DNA from: Lentisphaerae bacterium RIFOXYA12_FULL_48_11
GTDB lineage: Bacteria; Verrucomicrobiota; Kiritimatiellia; UBA8416; YA12-FULL-48-11
NCBI GenBank assembly: GCA_001804885.1
Contig: MHBM01000050.1
Location: 1-60,477 of the forward strand
DNA: 60,477 nucleotides
Reading direction: 5' to 3'
The notes beneath the pieces were generated by a model. The model had not been told where the DNA came from. It made no database searches and saw only the letters and a list, made by a program, of their open reading frames with translations. The translations under genes and the position numbers were made by a program. The stretch's first letter is position 1; every line of letters begins with the position of its first letter. Shown piece by piece: positions 6,562 through 52,278 of this stretch.

Positions 6562-7704
6562 TCAAGGCACGAGATTTTCCAGGAACCAGGGAAGAGAACA
6601 GGAAACAAGTCCCCCTGATTCAAAACTGTCATTAGTTCGTGAAACAAGAATACATTTATCAGCAGAAATCATCGTGGCTGTCCTGGCAAGATTCTTCATG
6701 TCATCTTCAGAAGGCGAAGAAGAAAGCTTGACCTCTATAGCCCAGATTTGTTTCCTGACCTTTACCACCAGATCCAGTTCATACCCGTCAGAAGTTCGGA
6801 AGAAACTCGCGTCAGGATTCAATCCTGACAAGCACAGGCCAGTTATCAACTGTTCAATAACATATCCTTCCCAGCTGTGGCCTACCCACGGCTGGGAAAG
6901 AAGATCATCTTCGGATGTGATACCGGCTAAGGCATGAAGCAGGCCGGAATCCCGCCAGTAAAGCTTCGGACTTTTTGTTAGCCGTTTCCGCATGTTTACA
7001 TGATATGATTGAAGCCTTCTGACAATATAGGCTCCCTCCAGAAAGTCAACGTACGTGTTGACGGTATTGTGAGACAAGCCTAGACTTTTCCCGATTTGCG
7101 AGGCATTCCATAATTGGCCATTACATATAGTAAGCATTTTCAGCAGTCTTGATGTCAACTGAGGCCTTGCATGCATACCCCAATTCGGAAGATCACGTTG
7201 CGCCAGGAGGTTAAGATAATCAATTTGCCATTGCGGAAATTTGGAACCTCCAAGTATACCTCCATCGGGATAGCCACCATAAAACCAATGGTGGCGACTG
7301 TGTGCTTTGTGCAATTCCTGCAGCATGAGCGGGGTCAGCTCGACAAGGGATAGTCTGCCTGTCAGCGCCTCCGACACATGGGTCATCAGAAATGGAGAAA
7401 CCGATCCCAGGATAAGGAACCGCGCATTCCTTTTCCGGTCTAAGTCAATGGCTGATCGGATTCTCGGAAAGATTTCCGGCCATGCCTGAGCCTCATCGAG
7501 GATGATTAATTCGTTGGCTGAAATTAGATCGTTCCATTGTGTATCAAGTTTCAGGCGGCTTGATTCTGTTTCAAGGTCAAAATAGATACCTGCAAACGAC
7601 TTCGCCAACGTTGTTTTGCCGGCCTGGCGGGGCCCCAGCAGACCGACAGCCGGGAAGAGGGAAAGCCTTTTCTTAACTGTATCTTTTAACAAACGTTTAA
7701 TCAT
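6562..7704 (-). CDS. AAA_14 + DUF4143 ATPase (copy 1)
   Basis: Walker A GPRQAGKT, Walker B IILDEAQ, LGS motif, central HTH-like NASQIGKSLGLSHNTVNTY, KLYWRDSGL, C-terminal ELDLV...IEVK. Start reset to ATG 7704. Confidence 0.85.
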   Translation of the reverse strand: MIKRLLKDTVKKRLSLFPAVGLLGPRQAGKTTLAKSFAGIYFDLETESSRLKLDTQWNDLISANELIILDEAQAWPEIFPRIRSAIDLDRKRNARFLILGSVSPFLMTHVSEALTGRLSLVELTPLMLQELHKAHSRHHWFYGGYPDGGILGGSKFPQWQIDYLNLLAQRDLPNWGMHARPQLTSRLLKMLTICNGQLWNASQIGKSLGLSHNTVNTYVDFLEGAYIVRRLQSYHVNMRKRLTKSPKLYWRDSGLLHALAGITSEDDLLSQPWVGHSWEGYVIEQLITGLCLSGLNPDASFFRTSDGYELDLVVKVRKQIWAIEVKLSSSPSEDDMKNLARTATMISADKCILVSRTNDSFESGGLVSCSLPWFLENLVP

Positions 7705-8231
7705 CTTCTTGATGATTGTAAATGGATTTACAAATTGCAAGAACAATCATTCTGTTATTTCTCTCAAAATCCTTCGCTGCCTTCCATGGCACGCCATAGT
7801 TCCGAAGGAACGACGGCGGCTGTTAACAACGCCCCAGCCTCTTCACTTGGTGAACTTGGCGATCTTTGTGGTAAAGAATCTTCTCCTCTCGGATTTTTAA
7901 CACCCGCGCTTCCCAGCGCTCCCATCTTCGCCAAAGCGCTACGACGTGGCAAGCAAGTTGCCCAAGTACACGAAGGAAAGATTAAGCACCATCTTCGTAC
8001 TACTATCTGTCAGAATCGTGTTTTTTTATGCAGAAGCTAAGAATAGTTCACCACGAAGAAAGAACAAGGGTGCACGAAGTGAAGCAAAAAGTATTTCTTT
8101 GTGTCCTTCGGGCACTTGCCTGTCCGCCGCAGCTATGGATTACAGGGGCGAAGGCTGGAAGGCCGGGAGGCCGGGTGGTTAAAATATTCTTTGGTTGCGG
8201 CTTCCCGCGCTGTGAACTTTGCCGTAAGATC

Positions 8232-41987: not shown

Positions 41988-43148
41988 TTACACAGGGGAG
42001 ATATCCTGCAATAGACGGTTAATTGAGACTGCTCGTATCTTCTCCGAAAGTGGAAATGTCTTCTCACCGGCATGTATGATATCCAGGCTTGTCAAATGAA
42101 GATCAACCATCGCATGTCGCATGGAAGGTGTTATGTCCGGCATACTGGTTCGCTTTATCTCAAATCCATATTTTTTTCCGCCTCGAACAATCAGCAGATC
42201 CAGCTCTGCACCGTTATGCGTGGCCCAGAAGTAACACTCATCAGGAGTTACACCAAGGATTCTTGCAACCTGATCAAGAATAAAGCCCTCCCAGGATGCT
42301 CCAAGTTTAGGATGTGACTCAATATCATTCTTTTCGCGCAGATTAAGTAAAGCATGTAAAATACCGCTGTCACCGATATATATTTTGGGGGCCTTTACCT
42401 GACGCTTTGACAGATTCTCATGCCATGGTTGCAGCTGCCTCACCACCAAAGCAGAGGCAAGATGATCCAAATAACTTCTTACTGTGTTATCTGAAACACC
42501 GAATGAACGCGCAAATTCTGAGGCATTCCATGTCTGTCCGTGATAGTGAGCCAACATCGTCCAAAAACGCCGCATTGTATGCGAACTCACACTAATACCC
42601 AACTGTGGAAGGTCCTTCTCAAGGAATGTACGGATATATCCTGTCCGCCACTCAAAACTTTCTGTTTGTGATTTTGCAAGAAATGAACGAGGCAATCCGC
42701 CACGCAACCAGAGCTTTGTTACTTCTCTTGCACCCGCCTCCTCTAGCGAGAAACCATTCAGTTCATGGTAAAATATTCGACCCGCTAATGTTTCAGAACT
42801 CTGCCTGAGCAGTTCAGGAGATGCACTACCAAGAATCAGAAAACGTGCCGGATTCGGCGACCGGTCAACTAAAACCCTGAGTACTTTAAAAATATCCGGA
42901 TAACGTTGAATCTCATCGATTACAATTGTTCCTTTTAGATCCTTTAACGCTACCATAGGATCAGTCAGACGGGCATAGTCTTCAGGGTTCTCAAGATCAA
43001 AGATATAAGAGTTTCCAGGCAAGTTTCTGACACAATCCTGCGCAAGCGTTGTTTTACCAACCTGTCGCGCGCCAAGAAGTCCCACCACGCGATGCCTCTG
43101 TAGAAGACCCTTTACTTCATGTAATTCCCTGGTTCGCTTGATTGTCAT
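41988..43148 (-). CDS. AAA_14 + DUF4143 ATPase (copy 3)
   Basis: GARQVGKT, IVIDEIQ, LGSAS, LAGR, HTH-like NASEFARSFGVSDNTVRSY, DSGIL, ELDLL...FEIK. Start reset to ATG 43148. Confidence 0.9.
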   Translation of the reverse strand: MTIKRTRELHEVKGLLQRHRVVGLLGARQVGKTTLAQDCVRNLPGNSYIFDLENPEDYARLTDPMVALKDLKGTIVIDEIQRYPDIFKVLRVLVDRSPNPARFLILGSASPELLRQSSETLAGRIFYHELNGFSLEEAGAREVTKLWLRGGLPRSFLAKSQTESFEWRTGYIRTFLEKDLPQLGISVSSHTMRRFWTMLAHYHGQTWNASEFARSFGVSDNTVRSYLDHLASALVVRQLQPWHENLSKRQVKAPKIYIGDSGILHALLNLREKNDIESHPKLGASWEGFILDQVARILGVTPDECYFWATHNGAELDLLIVRGGKKYGFEIKRTSMPDITPSMRHAMVDLHLTSLDIIHAGEKTFPLSEKIRAVSINRLLQDISPV

Positions 43149-43156
43149 AGAAAACA

Positions 43157-43201
43157 CATACCATGAAATATCGAAGGTGTCTATCGATATTTCATGGTAT
43201 G
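43157..43201. promoter_or_regulatory. perfect 18-bp inverted repeat (operator-like) upstream of ATPase copy 3
   Basis: CATACCATGAAATATCGA - 9 nt - TCGATATTTCATGGTATG. Confidence 0.65.
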
Positions 43202-43292
43202 TACAACATACGCCTTGCATCTCCTGTTGAGCCAGGCTTTGGCTGCAATACAGGAATTACGTAGCTTTCCGCAAAGCATACGATCTATCGCT

Positions 43293-43354
43293 CTCTTCTC
43301 ACGTACACTATCTGCGGCTTAGGGAGTCTGAATCCGAAGCGGCGCCAGAGTGAC
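43293..43354 (+). repeat. 62-bp direct repeat, copy 2
   Basis: Matches 41893-41954. Confidence 0.75.
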
Positions 43355-43455
43355 CAGGAAGAAACAACCATCAGGATGACAAGCAATATATACACAATCT
43401 TCTCCACAACGAATGTTTCGCAGACTTTTCAGCAAAATTTAACCGGCAAACAATC

Positions 43456-44046
43456 TTACGCTACCGCCTGTATTCCCATCCGGGATGCAGCCAATGCAAC
43501 AGCCCTGTCTGCATTCGATGACTCTCCCCCGCCCATCGCCGCCCTTCCTATAATCCGCGCCTTCATTGCCGTGGCTTCCGGCGTAGCTTCCGTACTAAGA
43601 TCAACTGTCACGGAACCACCCACCGCATAAGCCCTGCCATCAGGACCCATCTGGTAATTAAATGAAGGCCCACCTATCGCATAGCGACCTAATAAAGCTA
43701 TATGCGCCTGTTCATGCGACCTGACTTCGCGATCCCGTGCCTCAAGTTCAGATATCATCTGCCGGCCAGATTTATCCGAACCATCTGGTTGTTCACGAGC
43801 GCCCAGCAATATATCCTCCTCCGTGTATATACCGGCAGATTCTTCCGCTTCACCATTCAGAAGAACAACATCACCTTCCGGATAACCTCGATCTTCGGAA
43901 GTACGCCCAGTATGACTAATACCTTGCCCAGGGAAAGAAAGGAGAGGATCAGAGCCAATATTCGAAACACCAATCATGTATAAATCTTCGGCATAAGAGG
44001 AAGAAAACTTAAACAAAAGATTCCAGGCCCCTACCCCTATTTCCAT
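43456..44046 (-). CDS. SprA-related (CJM1_0395-like) family protein
   Basis: DREVRSHEQAH, YQMGPDGRAYAVGGSV, AMKARII, SNADRAVA. The start may be ATG 43977. Confidence 0.8.
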   Translation of the reverse strand: MEIGVGAWNLLFKFSSSYAEDLYMIGVSNIGSDPLLSFPGQGISHTGRTSEDRGYPEGDVVLLNGEAEESAGIYTEEDILLGAREQPDGSDKSGRQMISELEARDREVRSHEQAHIALLGRYAIGGPSFNYQMGPDGRAYAVGGSVTVDLSTEATPEATAMKARIIGRAAMGGGESSNADRAVALAASRMGIQAVA

Positions 44047-44143
44047 GCTTGGATACGTAAGCTGTGCTGACTATCTGGTTTCGGCCAGAATAGACTCAAG
44101 ATCAGCAAGATAAGATATGTAACCACAGATGGATACACCATCG

Positions 44144-44301
44144 TTTGGTCGCACATTTTATCTTTGAAATGCCAAAATTGGTTAAAAAGTTACTATTGTG
44201 ACAAATGTTACAGTAGTTACAGAAATGCTTGAAATTCCTAGAAAACCTGCGCTTGTATCGGCGTTTTACGAAGCATGTCACGCTGGAGACTCTGCGAAGG
44301 C
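44144..44301 (+). repeat. att-arm-like direct repeat, copy A
   Basis: Aligns with 48786-48951 (shared GTTACAGAAATGCTTGAAATTC, AGAAAACCTGCG, TTGTATCGGCGTTTTA, GCATGTCACGC, CTCTGCGAAGG). Confidence 0.85.
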
Positions 44302-44356
44302 TGTCAGCTAATAATAAACTTGACTTTACATTACTCGTCTTTATATAAAGTAGGCT

Positions 44357-45601
44357 ATGTTTTCACGATGGAAAACTCGTTTGTTGGCAGAGAAGCTCAA
44401 AAAGCCTTACGTGCATATTCTGTTTGGAGCGCGTCAGACCGGTAAATCAACTTTGCTGAAGACTTTGATCCCCAAACCTGATCTTTTCATTGATCTTTCC
44501 AACCCGGAAGAGCGTTCTCGCTATCTCGCAAGGCCCGGAGATCTTGTTGCTGAATGCCGGGCCCTTAGTCCTGCCGGAAGAACTCCCCCGTTGGTATTTA
44601 TTGATGAAGTTCAGGCGGTGCCCGAAATGTTCAATGCCGTTCAAAACCTTTATGATGGAGACAAGCACGGCTGGCGGTTTATACTGTGCGGCAGTTCTGC
44701 CCGTAAACTGCGTCAAACAGGGGCAAACATGCTGCCGGGTCGGTCAATGTTACATCGACTTTATCCGTTGACCCTGGCGGAACATCCATCAACCGAACAT
44801 GTGGCACCAAATATAGAATCACCGTTGCCTTTTCCATGGGATAAAAAAGAGAAGAACCCTCGTCCTTTCCCTGCATGGGATTTATTTACCCGCTTGACGT
44901 ATGGAGAACTACCAGGGATTGTGACAGCAGATAAAGAGGACAGGGCCGGCCTTCTCAAGTCTTATGCAATCATACACCTTGAAGAGGAAATTCGCAGGGA
45001 AGCACTGATAAAGGACTGGGGTGCTTTTACCCGTTTTCTGCAACTTGCAGCCATGGAATCCGGCACTTTATTGAATTATGCAAACATCTCGCAGCATGTT
45101 GGAGTATCTCAGCCGACAATCAAGTCCTATTACCAGCTTCTTGAAGACATGTTCGTTGGCTTCAGCGTGCCCGCTTTCTCAAAAAGCCCGAGAAAGAATC
45201 TTTTGTCTACACCGAAATTCTTTTTTTTCGATACGGGGGTTCGCCATGCTGCAGCAAGACTCGAGATTACCCAGGAAATTGTTAAAGCTAATCCTGGCCC
45301 AGTCTTTGAACAATGGGTTGGAACGGAACTTTGGAAACGACTCCAATATTCCGGAGGGACTTTATACCATCTGCGTACCAAAGATGGTGCCGAGATTGAC
45401 TTCATTGTCGAACACAAAGGGCGATATGTCCCAGTGGAAGTCAAATGGACGGAGCATCCGTCTCTGTCTGATGCCCGGCATATATTGAGATTTCTGGATG
45501 AATCTCCGGATAGAAAAAGCAAGGGATACATAATATGCCGTTGCTCTAAACCTATGTTACTGCATGACAGAGTCATGGCGTTACCGTGGTTTCACTTGTA
45601 A
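44357..45601 (+). CDS. AAA_14 + DUF4143 ATPase (copy 4)
   Basis: GARQTGKS, VFIDEVQ, CGSS, LPGR, FFDTGV, FEQWV, EIDF...VEVK. Confidence 0.9.
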   Translation: MFSRWKTRLLAEKLKKPYVHILFGARQTGKSTLLKTLIPKPDLFIDLSNPEERSRYLARPGDLVAECRALSPAGRTPPLVFIDEVQAVPEMFNAVQNLYDGDKHGWRFILCGSSARKLRQTGANMLPGRSMLHRLYPLTLAEHPSTEHVAPNIESPLPFPWDKKEKNPRPFPAWDLFTRLTYGELPGIVTADKEDRAGLLKSYAIIHLEEEIRREALIKDWGAFTRFLQLAAMESGTLLNYANISQHVGVSQPTIKSYYQLLEDMFVGFSVPAFSKSPRKNLLSTPKFFFFDTGVRHAAARLEITQEIVKANPGPVFEQWVGTELWKRLQYSGGTLYHLRTKDGAEIDFIVEHKGRYVPVEVKWTEHPSLSDARHILRFLDESPDRKSKGYIICRCSKPMLLHDRVMALPWFHL

Positions 45602-45626
45602 TAACCCTCAAATTCATGCAGGACAT

Positions 45627-45720
45627 AGAAATGCTTGAAATTCCTAGAAAACCTGCGATTGTATCGGCGTTTTACGAAACATGGGGCAGCATGTCACGCC
45701 GTAGGCTCTGCGAAGGTGGA
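45627..45720 (+). repeat. att-arm-like direct repeat, copy B (right half)
   Basis: AGAAATGCTTGAAATTCCTAGAAAACCTGCGATTGTATCGGCGTTTTACGAAACATGGGGCAGCATGTCACGCC...GCGAAGG. Confidence 0.9.
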
Positions 45721-46043
45721 TATATATATCGGAATCCTGTCGGGTGTTGGTTGTTTAGCGGGGTAGAATTTGCTTTGCGTTTAACGACCTTGTTTTCCGA
45801 TGCAATACCGATACGCCTCTTATTGCTTAACTCTTTCAGTTTTGTCGAGATTGTTCCAAATGAAAACGCCAATCGTTGTGCAATAGTTTCGTTTGTAATG
45901 GTTGTAAAGCGTTTCGCCGAACCAATATCCTGTTCAACTATCTTGTAGACGACCTTGGATTCTAATGAAATCGTTTTATCCGCAAGCAGTTCATCAGATA
46001 ATAATATACCCTCAGTTTCATCATCAGCAGAAACAACAGGCAA
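45672..46043 (-). pseudogene. winged-HTH protein (phage/plasmid replication-initiator-like N-terminus), probably truncated
   Basis: SLESKVVY...TNETIAQRLAFSFGTISTKLKEL HTH pattern; the 3' end runs into repeat copy B. Confidence 0.5.
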
Positions 46044-46271
46044 ATATCCTTTAGAAATTGCTAATTGCCCATTGAGTAAGACCGTTTATTTGATTCGGAA
46101 TACAGGATAAAGCAAGATTGATTAAATTTTAAAATGAATTGTCCTTCACCTGACAGATCGTGTAAGAGTGAATCCTTGACCCTGCTTTATCAATTATTAT
46201 AGTGGTTCCGAATTAATGCTTGGGATATCGTTAAGAAATTTATCCGAATAATACTTCAATGGAATGAATAA

Positions 46272-46556
46272 ATGAATATATGGCTACTGAGCAGTTTAAA
46301 CGCAGCAATAACTCGTCATATTAAAATTATTGAGATGATTGGTGTGCTGATGAGGATCTTCAGCTTCACTCTGGTAAGTTGGTTTGGCCCCAAAAGCCCC
46401 TTTCTCTTTATCTGGGCAGTCAATACAACAGATGCGGTATTACTCTCGTGGTGTGCAATAATCAAGAAAGACCCGGCTTACACAGTCCTCAATGTCTTCT
46501 GGATTGGGGTTGGTATCGTTGGAATGATTAGAGCGGTTGGGTTTTCGCATCTATAA
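46272..46556 (+). CDS. small membrane protein (CBU_0592-like)
   Basis: About three hydrophobic segments, ending DPAYTVLNVFWIGVGIVGMIR. Confidence 0.5.
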   Translation: MNIWLLSSLNAAITRHIKIIEMIGVLMRIFSFTLVSWFGPKSPFLFIWAVNTTDAVLLSWCAIIKKDPAYTVLNVFWIGVGIVGMIRAVGFSHL

Positions 46557-46848
46557 GTTTACAGTATTTTCAACCCCTCCCTCTCCTCAAGCTCAAGTAT
46601 GCCGTTAGAATTGCCGGGATAGAATTCATGCCCAACTAATGACAGGAAAATATTCTGCGAGATACATCTAGCTAATTTAACGGGAATAGCGGAATGTCTG
46701 AAGAAAGAGCGGAAGTTAGCATTTCCAAAACGGGCATTTAAATCCCCCCTTTAAATTGAAGGCATCAGTAACGACAGTAGGGTTTTACCCCATAGCATAG
46801 ATTTTAACCCATCGTATAAACTGTTTAAGCAAATAGAATAATGACTCA

Positions 46849-47274
46849 ATGACAAATACAATTATAGAAACGAACATTCCAACGTTTGAGGAGTTTCAAA
46901 AGCGGTGGCTAAAAGAAATGGAATCGCTCTCAATGAAACTCGCCAGGAATTCAGAAGCGTTCTCTATAGAAATGGAGCATTATCCTCAGACATTCCTCAA
47001 GACCTACAATATTCGAGGGAAAGATCGGCAGAACTTCCTAAAAGCCGCACTAGATTTTGTTATCGAAATGAAACAACTGTCAGAAGCAAATGTTCTGCAA
47101 AGGAATAAGAAGCTATGGGACAAGATAGGGATAGCACATGAGACAATAAATCGAGTTGCTGAACATCATAACATCCCAATGAACAAAAACGGAATGGCAG
47201 GATTTGTTGGATACTTGTTTCTGATGCTAAATCGGTTTCCAGATACCTTTGCCAAATTTTACCACATTAAATAG
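46849..47274 (+). CDS. hypothetical protein
   Basis: 141-aa ORF in an AT-rich segment; no motif recognised. Confidence 0.5.
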   Translation: MTNTIIETNIPTFEEFQKRWLKEMESLSMKLARNSEAFSIEMEHYPQTFLKTYNIRGKDRQNFLKAALDFVIEMKQLSEANVLQRNKKLWDKIGIAHETINRVAEHHNIPMNKNGMAGFVGYLFLMLNRFPDTFAKFYHIK

Positions 47275-47332
47275 AATTCTCCTGGAAGCAATTGGGTGGA
47301 TACTAACACCTTCTTGTTAGCATCTTGTTTCC

Positions 47333-47369
47333 AAATCCGTGGCATTTTGGTGGCACATTTTGTCTTTGA
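47333..47369 (+). repeat. att-arm-like direct repeat, copy C (left part)
   Basis: AAATCCGTGGCATTTTGGTGGCACATTTTGTCTTTGA, one mismatch to 48772-48808. Confidence 0.85.
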
Positions 47370-47420
47370 GGTGGTCAAAAAACAACCTAGTCATACCCTC
47401 AACCTTTTATAACTCTACCT

Positions 47421-48701
47421 CTAATTGGTTATTGTTACACCAGCGTCATAATAGAATTCCACTGGAAGTATATTTGTATTCCACACCTTGATAGCTGTCA
47501 GCATGTTATTTACTGCATTAACATAACTCAGGTTTGAGCATGTGGATAAATCTAAAACACCTGTTATACTATTGTTGAAACAGGATAGCTGGGTTAGCAT
47601 CCTACAATCTGTCACGTTAAGACTATTCAACATATTCTTATAACAGCCCAGTACGTTCAGATTCGTAAAACCAGCGAGGTCAAGACTCGTCAGATAATTA
47701 TCACCTACATTCAGATAGCTTAGATTTGTACATCCAGTCAAATGGAGATTCGTTAGACTATTATTAGTACACGACAAGCGGTTAAGATGTACGAAGCCAG
47801 ACAAATCGAGATTCGTCAGTCGGTTATCACTAAATTCTACATCATAAAGGTTCGTGCATCCGACCAGAGAGACATTCCTCAATGTATTTCCGTCACAATA
47901 AAGATAAGTCAGATTTGTATGTCCAGACAGGTCGAGATTTGTAAGGCTATTAGTCCAATTATGCTTACAGGATAAATAGTAGAGATTTGTACAGTCAGAT
48001 AGGTCAAGATATGACAATTGATTCGCATAACATTTAAGCCATTTAAGATTTATACAGCCAGTCAGGTCGAGATTTGTGAGTACAGGTGGATCGAAGCCTG
48101 TATGCTGATAATTACAGTCAAGATAGTATAGATTTGCAAAACCAGCCAGATTGATATTCGACAACAAGTTAACTTGACAGTCTAGATATCCTAGATTTGT
48201 TAATCCTGTTATGTCGAGATTTGTTAGTTGATTAAACCTGCAAATCAAAGAATACAAACTATTGAATTCAGTTATCCCTGTCAAATTGGAGACACCAGAA
48301 ACATCCAGAGTGAGATTAGTCAACGTTATAATATCTATGTCATATATCTGATTCGTTGGATAATACTTCACCTCAAGGTTGGCACGTATACCTTTATCAA
48401 AATTCTTGTCAGCAAAAGTTAATGCCCTTACTTCTCTGATACGGTAATAACAACTATCAGAAACATTACTCACTGAATGCAGATTTGTAGCAACAACCTG
48501 ATCAACATACTGCCACGTACCGGTTAACAATGATACTCTTTGTTGGACAATGTAGTTTGTTGTTACATGAGTCCACGATAGGTCAACTGTACCCGTTGAT
48601 GATATTGTAAAATTGCTTATCTGTAATTGACAGAAAGTTGCCTCACCCATTAAGAGGAGAGAGGCTATAACAGCGATGATCTTCGGAATGCTTACTTTCA
48701 T
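47421..48701 (-). CDS. secreted leucine-rich repeat protein
   Basis: Signal peptide; about a dozen LTNLDLSG(C/F)TNL..L.C..N repeats; the N-terminal region ends in CYYRIREV. Confidence 0.85.
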   Translation of the reverse strand: MKVSIPKIIAVIASLLLMGEATFCQLQISNFTISSTGTVDLSWTHVTTNYIVQQRVSLLTGTWQYVDQVVATNLHSVSNVSDSCYYRIREVRALTFADKNFDKGIRANLEVKYYPTNQIYDIDIITLTNLTLDVSGVSNLTGITEFNSLYSLICRFNQLTNLDITGLTNLGYLDCQVNLLSNINLAGFANLYYLDCNYQHTGFDPPVLTNLDLTGCINLKWLKCYANQLSYLDLSDCTNLYYLSCKHNWTNSLTNLDLSGHTNLTYLYCDGNTLRNVSLVGCTNLYDVEFSDNRLTNLDLSGFVHLNRLSCTNNSLTNLHLTGCTNLSYLNVGDNYLTSLDLAGFTNLNVLGCYKNMLNSLNVTDCRMLTQLSCFNNSITGVLDLSTCSNLSYVNAVNNMLTAIKVWNTNILPVEFYYDAGVTITN

Positions 48702-48770
48702 AGTTTCCCGCCAGTTAAAATAATGTATCTTTTCTCGCTGTTAAACTCAAGTATGCTAACTTTTCGGTAG

Positions 48771-48954
48771 CAAATCCGTGGCATTTTGGTGGCATATTTT
48801 GTCTTTGAAACGCTGAAAACGGTTTAAAAGTTACAAGTGTGACAATTGTTACAGTTGTTACAGAAATGCTTGAAATTCTTAGAAAACCTGCGATTGTATC
48901 GGCGTTTTAGAAGCATGGGGCAGCATGTCACGCCGGAGGCTCTGCGAAGGCGGA
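48771..48954 (+). repeat. att-arm-like direct repeat, copy D (full)
   Basis: Contains 11-bp-period GTGGCATTTTG / GTGGCATATTT, GTTACA repeats, and the blocks shared with copies A, B and C. Confidence 0.9.
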
Positions 48955-49040
48955 TAGCTTCCGCCGTCGCTTTAAAAGCTATGGCGGGACAAGTCTTGCT
49001 TCGCTCGTAAGCAACACAGGACAGGCAAGTTGGTGGAAAC

Positions 49041-49116
49041 GGGGCAGTAGCTCAGTTGGTAGAGCATCACGTTCGCAACGTGGGGGTCGTGAGTTCGAAT
49101 CTCATCTGCTCCACCA
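49041..49116 (+). tRNA. tRNA-Ala(CGC)
   Basis: Cloverleaf GGGGCAG / CTGCTCC with the G3:U70 Ala identity pair, anticodon arm TCACG-TTCGCAA-CGTGG, TTCGAAT T-loop and encoded CCA. Confidence 0.97.
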
Positions 49117-49284
49117 CTTCGCCATCATCGATTACGTCGGCTCTTGGCTACGGGTGGCAGGCCATGTTTTAGCTCGTAGTAACTTCTGCATCGGAGTACA
49201 TAGCCATATTCAAAAACATCTCCAAATATATCCATAGACGACGTTTGACAGGATCATGTGATTTGGATATATATGGATATTGTT

Positions 49285-50325
49285 ATGGATACTCCTAATA
49301 TAACGATTGATCCGGAAACGCTGAAACTCATTGCAGGAATAGATGAGTTCAAGGGCGCCTGGCGGGCATTTCAGAACCTGGCCCCCGACAGGCTTAACGT
49401 CCTTCGGAAAGTTGCAACCATCGAATCTGTCGGATCGTCCACCCGCATTGAAGGGGTGAAACTGACCGATGGCGAGATCGAGCGCCTTTTGTCCGGCGTG
49501 GGATTGAAGAAGTTCCGGTCGCGTGATGAACAGGAGGTTGCCGGGTATGCCGAGGCCATGAACGTGGTATTCGAGTCGTTTGGCGAAATTCCAGTCACGG
49601 AAAACCATATCAAGCAGCTCCACCAGATCCTGCTAAAGCGCTCCTCCAAAGACAACCGGCACCGCGGGGAATACAAAAAGCTCTCAAACAACGTGGAGGC
49701 CTTCGACGCCGGAGGCAAGAGCGTGGGCATCATATTCGAGACGGCCACGCCTTTTGATACGCCCCGAAAGATGCAGGAGCTGGTTGAGTGGTTCAACAGG
49801 GAAACTCCGGAAAGCCGTCACCATGTCCTGATCCTGATAGCAGTTTTCGTTGTTCACTTTCTTGCCATCCACCCGTTTCAGGACGGCAATGGCCGGCTGT
49901 CCAGAATACTTACGACGCTCCTGCTTTTGAAAGCCGGATACCTCTACGTTCCCTATGCCTCTCTGGAACGCATCATCGAGGAGAACAAGGACAAGTACTA
50001 TCTGTCTCTCAGGAAGGCGCAGGGCTCCCTCTACACCAACAACCGCCAGATGGGTGTCTGGATCAAGTTCTTCCTGAAATCCTTGAAGAGGCAATCCGAG
50101 GTGCTGGAACACAAGCTTCAGGGCGAGAAAGACATGCTGTCGCTGCCCAGGCTGTCTCAAGCTATTCTTGTGGCCGCCAGGGAACATGGTCGAGTCACGG
50201 TTAGCGACATTCAGCGACTCACCAAAACCAACCGGAACACCATAAAGGCTCACCTGAAGAGATTGGTTCAGAACCGACAATTGAACAAGGAAGGCAAGGG
50301 CAAGGGAACCTGGTATCGGTTGTAG
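49285..50325 (+). CDS. Fic/DOC family protein with C-terminal wHTH
   Basis: Canonical HPFQDGNGRLSR, SSTRIEG; promoter TTGACA-17-TATATA at 49245-49273. Confidence 0.95.
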   Translation: MDTPNITIDPETLKLIAGIDEFKGAWRAFQNLAPDRLNVLRKVATIESVGSSTRIEGVKLTDGEIERLLSGVGLKKFRSRDEQEVAGYAEAMNVVFESFGEIPVTENHIKQLHQILLKRSSKDNRHRGEYKKLSNNVEAFDAGGKSVGIIFETATPFDTPRKMQELVEWFNRETPESRHHVLILIAVFVVHFLAIHPFQDGNGRLSRILTTLLLLKAGYLYVPYASLERIIEENKDKYYLSLRKAQGSLYTNNRQMGVWIKFFLKSLKRQSEVLEHKLQGEKDMLSLPRLSQAILVAAREHGRVTVSDIQRLTKTNRNTIKAHLKRLVQNRQLNKEGKGKGTWYRL

Positions 50326-50418
50326 AAGAATTATGTCCACGCATTATCTCACCATCCTGAAAACTTTCTAGTCGCGACAGAAAGTTGCCTGCCCCGTCCG
50401 CCCATCCCTCGCACTTTC

Positions 50419-50440
50419 CCGTGGTAAGTCCGTGGTAACT
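50419..50440 (+). promoter_or_regulatory. putative integrase arm-type sites
   Basis: CCGTGGTAAGT-CCGTGGTAACT 11-bp tandem, 118 nt before the att core and separated from it by AT-rich DNA. Confidence 0.55.
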
Positions 50441-50557
50441 ACTTTACTTTACCTTGAGGAAATTGAGGTTTTTGAGTTTTTTACCAACTTGCACAAACCC
50501 CTGATAATGCAATAACATACGGTAATTATTGGGTTTTCTGAAAAAGCTTTGGAAGAA

Positions 50558-50602
50558 TTCGCAACGTGGGGGTCGTGAGTTCGAATCTCATCTGCTCCAC
50601 CA
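50558..50602 (+). repeat. attR: duplicated 3' half of tRNA-Ala
   Basis: Identical to 49072-49116; no 5' half upstream. Confidence 0.95.
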
Positions 50603-50635
50603 GCCTTCGCTCGCAGCGCAGTGGAGAGTGAAGGC
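50603..50635. terminator. hairpin after attR
   Basis: GCCTTCGCTC...GAGAGTGAAGGC stem; lacks a U tract, so it may be REP-like rather than a terminator. Confidence 0.35.
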
Positions 50636-50713
50636 TGTCACGCCGTAGTCATTCGAATGAAGTAAAGAATGCGGAGGTGGACCGTTTATTCTGCTGCGAG
50701 ACTACGGCTTGGT

Positions 50714-50890
50714 ATGCCAGCAGGCACATATCATTACGTTTATATTCTAACCAGTTCTGTAGATACCAGCCGTCATTATGTCGGACGTCCAGGAACGTTT
50801 AAGAAAGCACAACGAAGGCGGTTGTCCTCACACATCGCAATTCAAACCCTGGACTCTGGAAACTCGTCTTGCTTTCCGTAACAAAGACCT
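50714..50890 (+). pseudogene. frameshifted GIY-YIG (YhbQ-like) nuclease
   Basis: HYVYILTSSVDTSRHYVG in one frame continues as DVQERLRKHNEG...TSQFKPW in another frame; the 3' end is replaced by a REP-like repeat at 50901-50934. Confidence 0.8.
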
Positions 50891-51048
50891 CCCTTCGGAC
50901 TTCCGGCGTCGCCAAAGAGGCTATGACGAACAAGACGTGTGGCATGGTCATGGTTCATTCCGGGCACATGGTTTACACTTTGCAAACAAGGTTCAACACC
51001 AAACAACCGCTGGAAGTCTGAGAATGTTGTGCTATAATTGATCGTCGT

Positions 51049-52278
51049 ATGCATTTTTTTGATAAAATCGCCAGAAGCTGTACGGGACTGCTCGCCCTTA
51101 TTATGGCCTGTTTTCTCCTGAGTTCATGCACTCTACCTGTCGGCTACAGGGGTATGATCGAGCAGAACCTGATTCAGGATAGCAATTCCCGGAGTACCCT
51201 AAGGGACAATTACGAGCACAAGTTCCTGGTGGTTGTGGGGATCGACAATTACGAGTACGCTGATCGGCTGCGCCATGCTGTGCGTGATGCCGCATCCATG
51301 GCCACCATGTTCAAAGCGTCGGGATTTGAAATAGCAGAGCTCTACGACGCTCAGGCGACAAGACGGAATATCATGTCTTTGATAGAGTCAATTCTACAGA
51401 AAGCCGGCCCTGATGATCTTGTTGTTGTCTTTTTCGCAGGACACGGTACAGACCTTAAAGATCCTGACGAGAGCATAAAGGGATACCTCGTTCCAGTTGA
51501 AGGCAGGATAAAGGATTCAAAAAGCCTCATCCCCATGAACTGGCTGCAGGTTGATCTGCTCGCAGGCAACAATACCCGGGCCAAACATCTCCTGTTCATG
51601 CTTGATGCATGCAGTTCCGGAATTGTTGCGGCAAGGGCCACCGTTAACGTTGACAGCAGTGTAAGAAACTATATATCCGAACTGATGAAACGCGAGGCCA
51701 GGCAGGTCATCACCGCCGGAACCGGAAACCAGCAGGTACTTGACGGTGGCTACAAGGGCCACAGCATATTTGCCGGCCTGGTCCTGCAGGGCCTTGAAGA
51801 CTGTGCCGCTGATCTCAATGGCGATTATCACATCACGGCAACGGAACTTGGTTTATTCCTTTCGCAGAAAGTCTACGTACAGTCAAAGGGCGCGCAGAAA
51901 CCTGACTTTGCCAAATTGCTCGGAACGAAGGGTGGCGAGGTAATTCTTAAATTCCCGAACGACCGCGAGAAACAGATTCTTGAAGAAAGAAAAAAGAATA
52001 CTGAGGCGGCAACCGCAGACCTGGCCGTAAGCGCAAGGCCGGTTGCAGCGGATATAATTGTTTATGACCTGGCCGGGAAACTCATTGCAGAAAAGCGGAA
52101 TATCACCGACCGGGTAACAATCCAGAACCTTCCCGCAGGAGATTACCAGGTAATCGTGAAGTCGCGGGACAGCAGGTATGATTCTGTCATGATGGTGCTT
52201 GGCCTTTACGGACCGGTGGCAAAGGACATCACTCTCCCCCGCCGAATGCTGAACGTTTCTTCTGTTCCCCTGCTTTAG
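51049..52278 (+). CDS. caspase-like (peptidase C14) lipoprotein
   Basis: Lipobox LSSC; VVGIDNY, FFAGHG (His), LDACSSG (Cys), GHSIF. Confidence 0.9.
   Translation: MHFFDKIARSCTGLLALIMACFLLSSCTLPVGYRGMIEQNLIQDSNSRSTLRDNYEHKFLVVVGIDNYEYADRLRHAVRDAASMATMFKASGFEIAELYDAQATRRNIMSLIESILQKAGPDDLVVVFFAGHGTDLKDPDESIKGYLVPVEGRIKDSKSLIPMNWLQVDLLAGNNTRAKHLLFMLDACSSGIVAARATVNVDSSVRNYISELMKREARQVITAGTGNQQVLDGGYKGHSIFAGLVLQGLEDCAADLNGDYHITATELGLFLSQKVYVQSKGAQKPDFAKLLGTKGGEVILKFPNDREKQILEERKKNTEAATADLAVSARPVAADIIVYDLAGKLIAEKRNITDRVTIQNLPAGDYQVIVKSRDSRYDSVMMVLGLYGPVAKDITLPRRMLNVSSVPLL

Follow-up and report, generated by a model that had tools for sequence, protein, structure and literature searches.

Repeat array upstream of the tRNA-Ala gene

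The window analysed in this work covers positions 1-60,477 of contig MHBM01000050.1 of Lentisphaerae bacterium RIFOXYA12_FULL_48_11 (assembly GCA_001804885.1), which belongs to the Kiritimatiellia. Just upstream of the tRNA-Ala(CGC) gene, the contig carries an array of four repeats, designated A to D, which are all direct and alternate with genes in the order A, ATPase, B, small genes, C, leucine-rich-repeat (LRR) gene, D and tRNA-Ala (Table 1). The copies were placed by a repeat search, genome-wide BLAST and a multiple alignment. An earlier description, made from the sequence alone and referred to below as the sequence-only reading, had given the same order, with A as a nearly full copy, B as a right half, C as a left part and D as a full copy, and the alignment, BLAST and profile searches agreed with it.

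Table 1. Features of the repeat array and of the tRNA-Ala region (positions in the window).
Feature	Position	Strand	Description
Repeat A	44132-44306 (44144-44306 by repeat search/alignment)	+	nearly full tRNA-Ala upstream unit
AAA_14 + DUF4143 ATPase, 414 aa	44357-45601	+	matches PADLOC candidate defence family PDC-S01
Repeat B	45627-45722	+	proximal block, GGGGCAG and first 33 nt of the palindromic insert
123-aa open frame	45672-46043	-	possible gene remnant; resembles a winged-helix C-terminus by eye only
94-aa small membrane-type open reading frame (ORF)	46272-46556	+	PF26604 (CBU_0592) in existing gene calls
141-aa ORF	46849-47274	+	function not assigned
Repeat C	47280-47381 (47315-47380 by repeat search/alignment)	+	distal block only
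LRR protein, 426 aa	47421-48701	-	36-38% GC vs 48-52% background
Repeat D	48717-48923 (48754-48956 by repeat search/alignment)	+	full unit
Palindromic insert	48924-49040	+	117 nt, GGGGCAG on both flanks, separates D from the tRNA
tRNA-Ala(CGC)	49041-49116	+	sole copy in the assembly
Fic islet	49117-50602	+	Fic-winged helix-turn-helix (wHTH) gene at 49258-50325 (PADLOC SoFic)

The genome searched was the 5.68-Mb assembly, which is 84% complete and has the array on the window contig. A profile hidden Markov model built from copies of several genomes gave four matches in this assembly, corresponding to A-D (E-values of 1e-47, 4e-37, 6e-27 and 6e-18), and none elsewhere, and BLAST of D against the genome returned the same four sites only. 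Such a fourfold match is far beyond chance. The identity to D was 88% for A (over about 130 nt), 95% for B (96 nt) and 97% for the 38-nt core of C. In the repeat search, the repeats showed no inverted-repeat structure of their own.

The locus was reproduced at 99.9-100% identity in at least 12 contigs from other samples and is therefore not an assembly artefact; these contigs represent the same strain and are uninformative on between-strain variation. The sole structural difference among these copies of the locus was found in contig L072, in which the 43 nt at 43569-43611 of the window were replaced by 10 other bases.

Repeat D begins with a distal block containing a GTGGCA tandem (48778-48795), followed by a spacer, a proximal block (48862-48916) and GGGGCAG (48917-48923), which duplicates the 7 nt at the tRNA start. 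The tandem has an 11-bp period and occurs genome-wide only in C and D. CATGGGG, which the sequence-only reading had noted downstream of the tandem in D, was confirmed at 48914-48920, 118 nt past it. Repeat C comprises CTTCTTGTTAGCATCTTGTTTCCAAATC, the tandem CGTGGCATTTTGGTGGCAC (47339-47356) and ATTTTGTCTTTGA. In repeat A, a single degenerate arm unit (GGTCGCAC) is followed by the spacer and the 55-nt proximal block, and then by roughly 30 nt of the palindromic insert; A is devoid of GGGGCAG, which was removed by a 10-nt deletion between two GCAT(G) repeats.

Identity of the repeat

Comparison with relatives showed that the repeat of about 200 bp is, by its sequence, the native DNA lying immediately upstream of tRNA-Ala(CGC). 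The right-hand 55 nt (RGAAATGCTTGAAAT...GTATCGGCGTTTTACGAAGCAT) directly abut GGGGCAGTAGCTCAG, the start of tRNA-Ala, in a genome of the same genus (G001) and in contigs L039, L044 and L047; in contig L048, the proximal block is followed by GGGGCAG, an insert and the tRNA, an arrangement as in D. The alignment of 12 copies divided the unit into a conserved distal block (CTTCTTGTTGGCATCTTGTTTGCAAATC-CGTGGCATTTYGGTGGCAY-ATTTTGTCTTTGAAAC), a variable spacer and a conserved proximal block, the last of which is probably the tRNA promoter. CATGGGG, likened earlier to the anticodon loop of a tRNA-Pro(GGG), proved to consist of GCAT, the end of the upstream block, and GGGG(CAG), the first bases of tRNA-Ala, and the link to tRNA-Pro was rejected for this reason. 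Since the repeat is the tRNA's own upstream region, elements using it would insert from the 5' side, bringing a promoter and a tRNA 5' half with them.

The first 66 nt of the insert between D and the tRNA form a long imperfect hairpin (48926-48991), made of a dispersed motif family, TGTCACGCCGKAG...GCGAAGGCGG, that is scattered through this genome and its order. The palindromic motif TGTCACGCCGKAG-N-GCGAAGGCGG was found at 19 sites genome-wide and in many copies in the genomes G043 and G034; further copies in the window are located at 44276-44303, 45692-45719 and 50626-50648. The insert is missing in G001, L039, L044 and L047, and a similar one occupies the same place in L048. The right ends of A and B both lie 30-33 nt into the insert, at the hairpin apex, where the homology of B to D ends. 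The palindrome GCGAAGGCGGA-TAGC-TTCCGCCGTCGC, at the centre of which A and B end, was considered as an alternative recombination core and rejected, as it does not resemble the anticodon stem-loop and no right half-site follows the A and B junctions as would be expected. It was also considered whether GGGGCAG together with the insert could be a decayed tRNA 5' half, and no convincing alignment was obtained by eye.

Islands at the same unit in relatives

In G001, the order in the direction of the tRNA is an upstream unit with a 41-nt tRNA 5' half, a tandem, a 5.4-kb island, a second upstream unit and the intact tRNA. The displaced 5' half is 100% identical and ends with ...TTCGCAACGT, just beyond the anticodon loop, and the tandem of the P' arm, TCGGTGGCATGTTCGGTGGCAT, lies 56 nt past it. 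A tyrosine recombinase is represented in the island by its C-terminal 85 residues and has an in-frame stop; the integrases of L057, L058 and L047 share 65%, 58% and 49% identity with this remnant, respectively. G001 has an array of its own, in which two of the three units enclose a single small gene.

In L047, the proximal block is followed by the same 41-nt half with the same boundary and then by an intact 374-aa integrase (PF00589 and SAM_5). An excisionase-like HTH_17 gene precedes the integrase gene and both read towards the junction. Behind the integrase, more than 39 kb of defence-type genes and genes typical of integrative and conjugative elements were present, the contig ending before the far junction. 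A third displaced 5' half, again followed by a tandem, was found in G017. The sequence-only reading had proposed a search for integrases next to the repeat, and in these relatives the unit indeed borders islands with an intact (L047) or a remnant (G001) integrase.

The boundaries of such islands showed that, in the relatives, the crossover falls within the anticodon loop: in 3'-supplying elements the identity extends from tRNA position 32 on, and in 5'-supplying ones up to position 41. In the window's tRNA-Ala, this loop is located at 49072-49078 and would be the point of crossover for elements on both sides. The relatives also showed that it is the promoter and the 5' half that the 5'-supplying elements carry, at the end away from the integrase, in place of a 3' half beside it.

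The gene content of these islands was also noted. In the G001 island (L035, 11460-14039), a dCTP-deaminase-like gene and two uncharacterised genes (174 and 469 aa) are located between the att junction and the integrase remnant; the dCTP-deaminase-like group may represent a nucleotide-depletion defence module, for which a PADLOC match was absent. The island of more than 39 kb behind the intact integrase (L047, L049, L051, L053 and L054; Ga0172375_10001281) encodes ParB_N, DUF5131, MoxR-type AAA with VWA (DUF2201), NERD and two GmrSD proteins, as well as a type IIG/Eco57I-type restriction-methylase, two large helicases, a beta-clamp-like protein, PDDEXK, RadC and DUF932. In another family of the order (L033, G006:C37, 150-462, minus strand), an insert of about 270 nt interrupts tRNA-Ala(CGC) at the anticodon loop. 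This insert carries a complete replacement tRNA-Ala(CGC) and a terminator-like hairpin and represents a third way in which the tRNA is preserved upon insertion.

Integrase family and its arm-type sites

Of 401 sampled genomes of the phylum, 8 had homologues of the L047 integrase (31-51% identity), and these 8 are from the same class. For seven of the 10 homologue copies, the distance to the 3' end of an intact tRNA gene is 60-140 nt and the two genes are convergent, which is the usual orientation, with the 3' half supplied; the tRNAs concerned are Ala-CGC (three), Val (two) and Pro (two). In all seven, a tandem direct repeat followed by TTTTG, such as TCGGTGGCACATTCGGTGGTAGTTTTTG or TCGGTGGTACATCCGGTGGTACATTTTG, is situated between the tRNA and the integrase. 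An exact tandem with a period of 11-13 was present in 10 of 11 integrase 3' flanks (including that of L047), compared with 12% of random 300-nt pieces of the window's genome. The motifs of the Ala-targeting members, CGGTGGCACAT and CGGTGGTACAT, resemble the tandems of C, D and the Fic islet.

The AlphaFold model of the L047 integrase (pLDDT of 81) contains an N-terminal domain of three strands and a helix (residues 8-50). The best fold matches of the model were structures of full-length lambda integrase, with alignments that span almost the entire length. Pfam finds no arm-binding domain at the N-terminus, and the model suggests that the N-terminal domain is of the arm-binding kind. The tandems are accordingly termed putative arm-type integrase sites here, and the distal block of C and D would be a P arm. 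C, D and the Fic islet all have predicted arm-site tandems whose form and spacing are typical of the family. The att-arm-like character that the sequence-only reading had assigned to the repeats is consistent with these data, the tandem of the distal block being of the type found beside this one lambda-like integrase family.

The genome G344 carries a 22-kb integrase-bearing island whose closing repeat starts at the anticodon loop. Its far (P) arm carries CCGGTGGTACATCGGTGGCAAC, which ends about 118 nt before the core repeat. Past the closing repeat, a second P' arm with its own tandem was detected (L082, G344:C181:51200-51700), indicating accretion on the 3' side at this site.

Fic islet on the 3' side of the tRNA

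The Fic islet is bounded by a 45-nt repeat (50558-50602), which corresponds to the tRNA from the anticodon loop to CCA and is 100% identical to 49072-49116. A tandem, CCGTGGTAA(GT)CCGTGGTAA, is located at 50419-50437, about 120 nt before this repeat, and is probably the P arm of a family member in the usual orientation. G001 has an empty site for the islet. The parallel between the array and the geometry of the Fic islet, drawn in the sequence-only reading, is reinforced by G344, in which the P-arm tandem likewise precedes the anticodon-loop repeat by about 118 nt. The Fic islet is probably a decayed element of the same family that was inserted in the usual orientation and supplied the 3' half; having retained attL and attR and being devoid of int, it fits the definition of a cis-mobilizable element (CIME).

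Origin of the array

The array is probably a set of P-arm/promoter copies left by the serial integration of lambda-like elements that supplied the tRNA 5' half and subsequently decayed to single genes. In this Kiritimatiellae lineage, the upstream unit would double as the P arm of the attachment site of a lambda-like tyrosine integrase. The layout of this arm would comprise distal tandem arm-type sites (CGTGGCAT N4 GTGGCAY ATTTTG), the variable spacer and the 55-nt proximal block, with the tRNA 5' half coming next when the unit is unmodified. As the P-arm spacer in the window's genus would hold the tRNA promoter and 5' half, the single-copy tRNA would be rebuilt at the integrase-distal end and the old unit pushed upstream. 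Each integration would set a fresh unit next to the tRNA, and repeats of this step would stack the units. In the window, several such integrations may have been followed by the deletion of integrase, excisionase, P' arms and displaced tRNA halves, with the residue being an array whose cargo was cut down to single genes, some of them candidate defence genes. On a speculative view, repeat C could be a truncated P arm or a P/P' hybrid, produced when the two tandems of a single element, which are direct repeats, recombined with each other. The array as it stands is a fossil, A and B having no recombination core.

Of the interpretations offered in the sequence-only reading, the tandem accretion of integrative elements pruned to their cargo is the best one because the repeat borders integrase islands in relatives; its alternative, a cassette platform mobilised in trans, and the relation to tRNA-Pro were not supported.

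Several observations weigh against serial integration. The right end of an integrase-bearing 5'-supplying element, consisting of the P arm and the restored tRNA, was seen only in the decayed island of G001. In the window itself, A, B and C have neither a tRNA 5' half nor an anticodon-loop core, a tblastn search with the family integrases revealed no remnant within 43000-51100, and the assembly, at its 84% completeness, contains no close homologue of the family integrase. With no tRNA half and no integrase remnant present, integration at this locus is inferred from the relatives and not seen directly. No excisionase remnant was found inside the array. The ends of A and B at the hairpin apex, and not in the anticodon loop, require either two deletions at one hairpin or a different joining mechanism. 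Palindromes are prone to deletion and two deletions ending at one hairpin are possible. The sigma-70 consensus scan does not flag the proximal block either, so the label 'promoter' is taken only from its position and conservation.

Another explanation, which appears unlikely, is that A and B arose with no integrase involved. Foreign DNA, circular or linear, carrying a stretch of the resident unit would have entered by a RecA-type single crossover or by homology-facilitated illegitimate recombination, and the shared stretch (proximal block, GGGGCAG and the first palindrome arm) would have been duplicated on both sides of the cargo. This would suit the right ends of A and B, which are at the palindrome apex rather than at the integrase crossover site, the lack of P' arm, tRNA half and integrase remnant, and the divergence of the copies (84-96%), expected of imported homologous DNA. 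It leaves unexplained the family-typical tandem sites that mark the repeated unit as an integrase arm and the presence of the same unit at true integrase junctions in relatives. Moreover, such entry still needs donors carrying the unit, which would most simply be the integrative elements themselves.

Highly improbable is an active platform of the kind proposed in the sequence-only reading, in which an integrase acting in trans moves single-gene cassettes and the repeat serves as a recombination site with an outward promoter, as in integrons. The short, mostly single-gene units separated by a recurring sequence, here and in G001, do recall an integron array; candidate defence genes are among the cargo, and three of the four displaced proximal blocks have a same-strand ORF within 35-550 nt. 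However, with neither a tRNA 5' half nor an anticodon-loop core at junctions A and B, an integrase of this family finds no substrate there, and the proximal half of C is missing altogether. No PF00589 match was found on the window contig, as the sequence-only reading had stated, the 17 matches of the genome being all on other contigs, and no close member of the family is encoded in the assembly. The locus is identical in at least 12 assemblies, and the GTGGCA tandem occurs nowhere else in the genome. Unlike integrons, the window has no IntI or attI, and its repeats are direct arms of 100-200 bp and not imperfectly palindromic attC hairpins. The genes between the repeats are on both strands, and the integron-like reading was rejected on account of this mixed orientation, the direct non-palindromic repeats and the lack of an integrase on the contig.

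A local segmental duplication of a strong tRNA promoter region, retained for driving its neighbours with no mobile elements involved, has very little probability: the proximal block is the best conserved part of the unit and the ATPase gene starts 80 nt past that of A on the same strand, but C is a distal, non-promoter block only, the DNA between the copies is compositionally foreign and relatives tie the unit to integrases and tRNA halves.

Cargo genes and their surroundings

Judged by its composition, the cargo between B and D is foreign, with a GC content of 36-41% compared with 48-52% around it. The LRR gene occupies the strand and position at which the integrase sits beside the tandem in family members. 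For the 123-aa frame, called an HTH remnant in the sequence-only reading, a profile search found no family match, nor is the frame similar to the wHTH of Fic; the likeness is one seen by eye.

Further genes for DUF4143/PDC-S01-type ATPases are located in the window at 41988-43220 and 6562-7746, and at least seven were counted in the genome. The copy at 41988-43220 is situated directly to the left of the array, next to an SprA-related gene. The 0.7-kb segment with the 141-aa ORF (46570-47281) has a paralogous copy, 88-90% identical, on C297 (3698-4395) beside a response-regulator gene. Contig L073 joins window sequence to this paralogue and may be chimeric.

Comparison with known integration systems

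A classification of heterobivalent tyrosine-integrase islands that cross over in the tRNA anticodon loop (Williams 2002) is cited in PMC6563490 and PMC1635311. The elements described here share with such lambda-type islands a crossover in the 7-nt anticodon loop (the Fic repeat starting from position 32 and the displaced halves reaching position 41), the gene order of the relatives, with xis then int reading towards att, and tandem, putatively arm-type repeats in both the P and P' arms; the modelled fold of the L047 integrase is also predicted to be nearest to full-length lambda Int. They differ in that the element of the window's genus would have the promoter and the tRNA 5' half in the P arm, and not a 3' half by int, and in that the window has no integrase. 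An integrase adjoining the att junction, missing in the window, is present in L047 (intact) and G001 (remnant). A direct tRNA repeat with its edge in the anticodon loop characterises the Fic islet, G001 and L047, and not A, B and C.

Recombination in the 5'-distal part of tRNA genes is described as 'considerably less frequent' than in the 3'-distal part in PMC6563490, citing Zhao and Williams 2002 and archaeal cases. The G001 island resembles these 5'-distal integrators in having a displaced 5' fragment at one end and a restored gene at the other. There, the 41-nt 5' half and an upstream unit mark the 5' supply beyond the 5.4-kb island, whereas the window retains the upstream units only. In the present family, the place of int with respect to the tRNA is shared with the 3'-supplying relatives, and only the supplied half differs.

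The scheme of accretion and decay, in which integration, decay and further integration at the same site lead to arrays of att-bounded remnants, is outlined in PMC5704250 (reviewing Pavlovic 2004 and Bellanger 2011). The history proposed for the window would follow the same three steps, with the Fic islet being CIME-like. The upstream cassettes are not CIMEs because the core has been lost at the left junctions (A, B), and C also differs in having no proximal half. A further difference from known accretion systems is that stacking here would take place on the 5' side, each step adding a promoter copy.

Significance of the array

These results reveal no new recombination mechanism; the locus is probably an island hotspot in decay, which belongs to a known kind and has an att layout that is modestly unusual. 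A broader proposal, regarded as doubtful, is that one integrase family using one anticodon loop has evolved two interchangeable attP forms that would keep the single-copy tRNA-Ala functional, with either a 3' half beside int or a promoter and 5' half in the P-arm spacer, and that displaced but active promoters drive the older cargo. If this were true, repeat A in front of the PDC-S01 ATPase gene and the third unit of G001 in front of a small lipoprotein gene would be examples of promoter-driven cargo, and single defence genes would accumulate into an array punctuated by promoters.

The locus provides a comparative example of a rare 5'-side way to insert without killing the tRNA gene, within an integrase family whose close relatives use the 3'-side way. 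With the attP layout of the family defined as tandem arm sites on both arms and an anticodon-loop core, defence-rich islands would be easier to delimit in metagenome-assembled genomes. The repeat array itself becomes a readable history of how a single tRNA gene may have served as a landing pad on both of its sides in a poorly studied phylum, the Kiritimatiellota.

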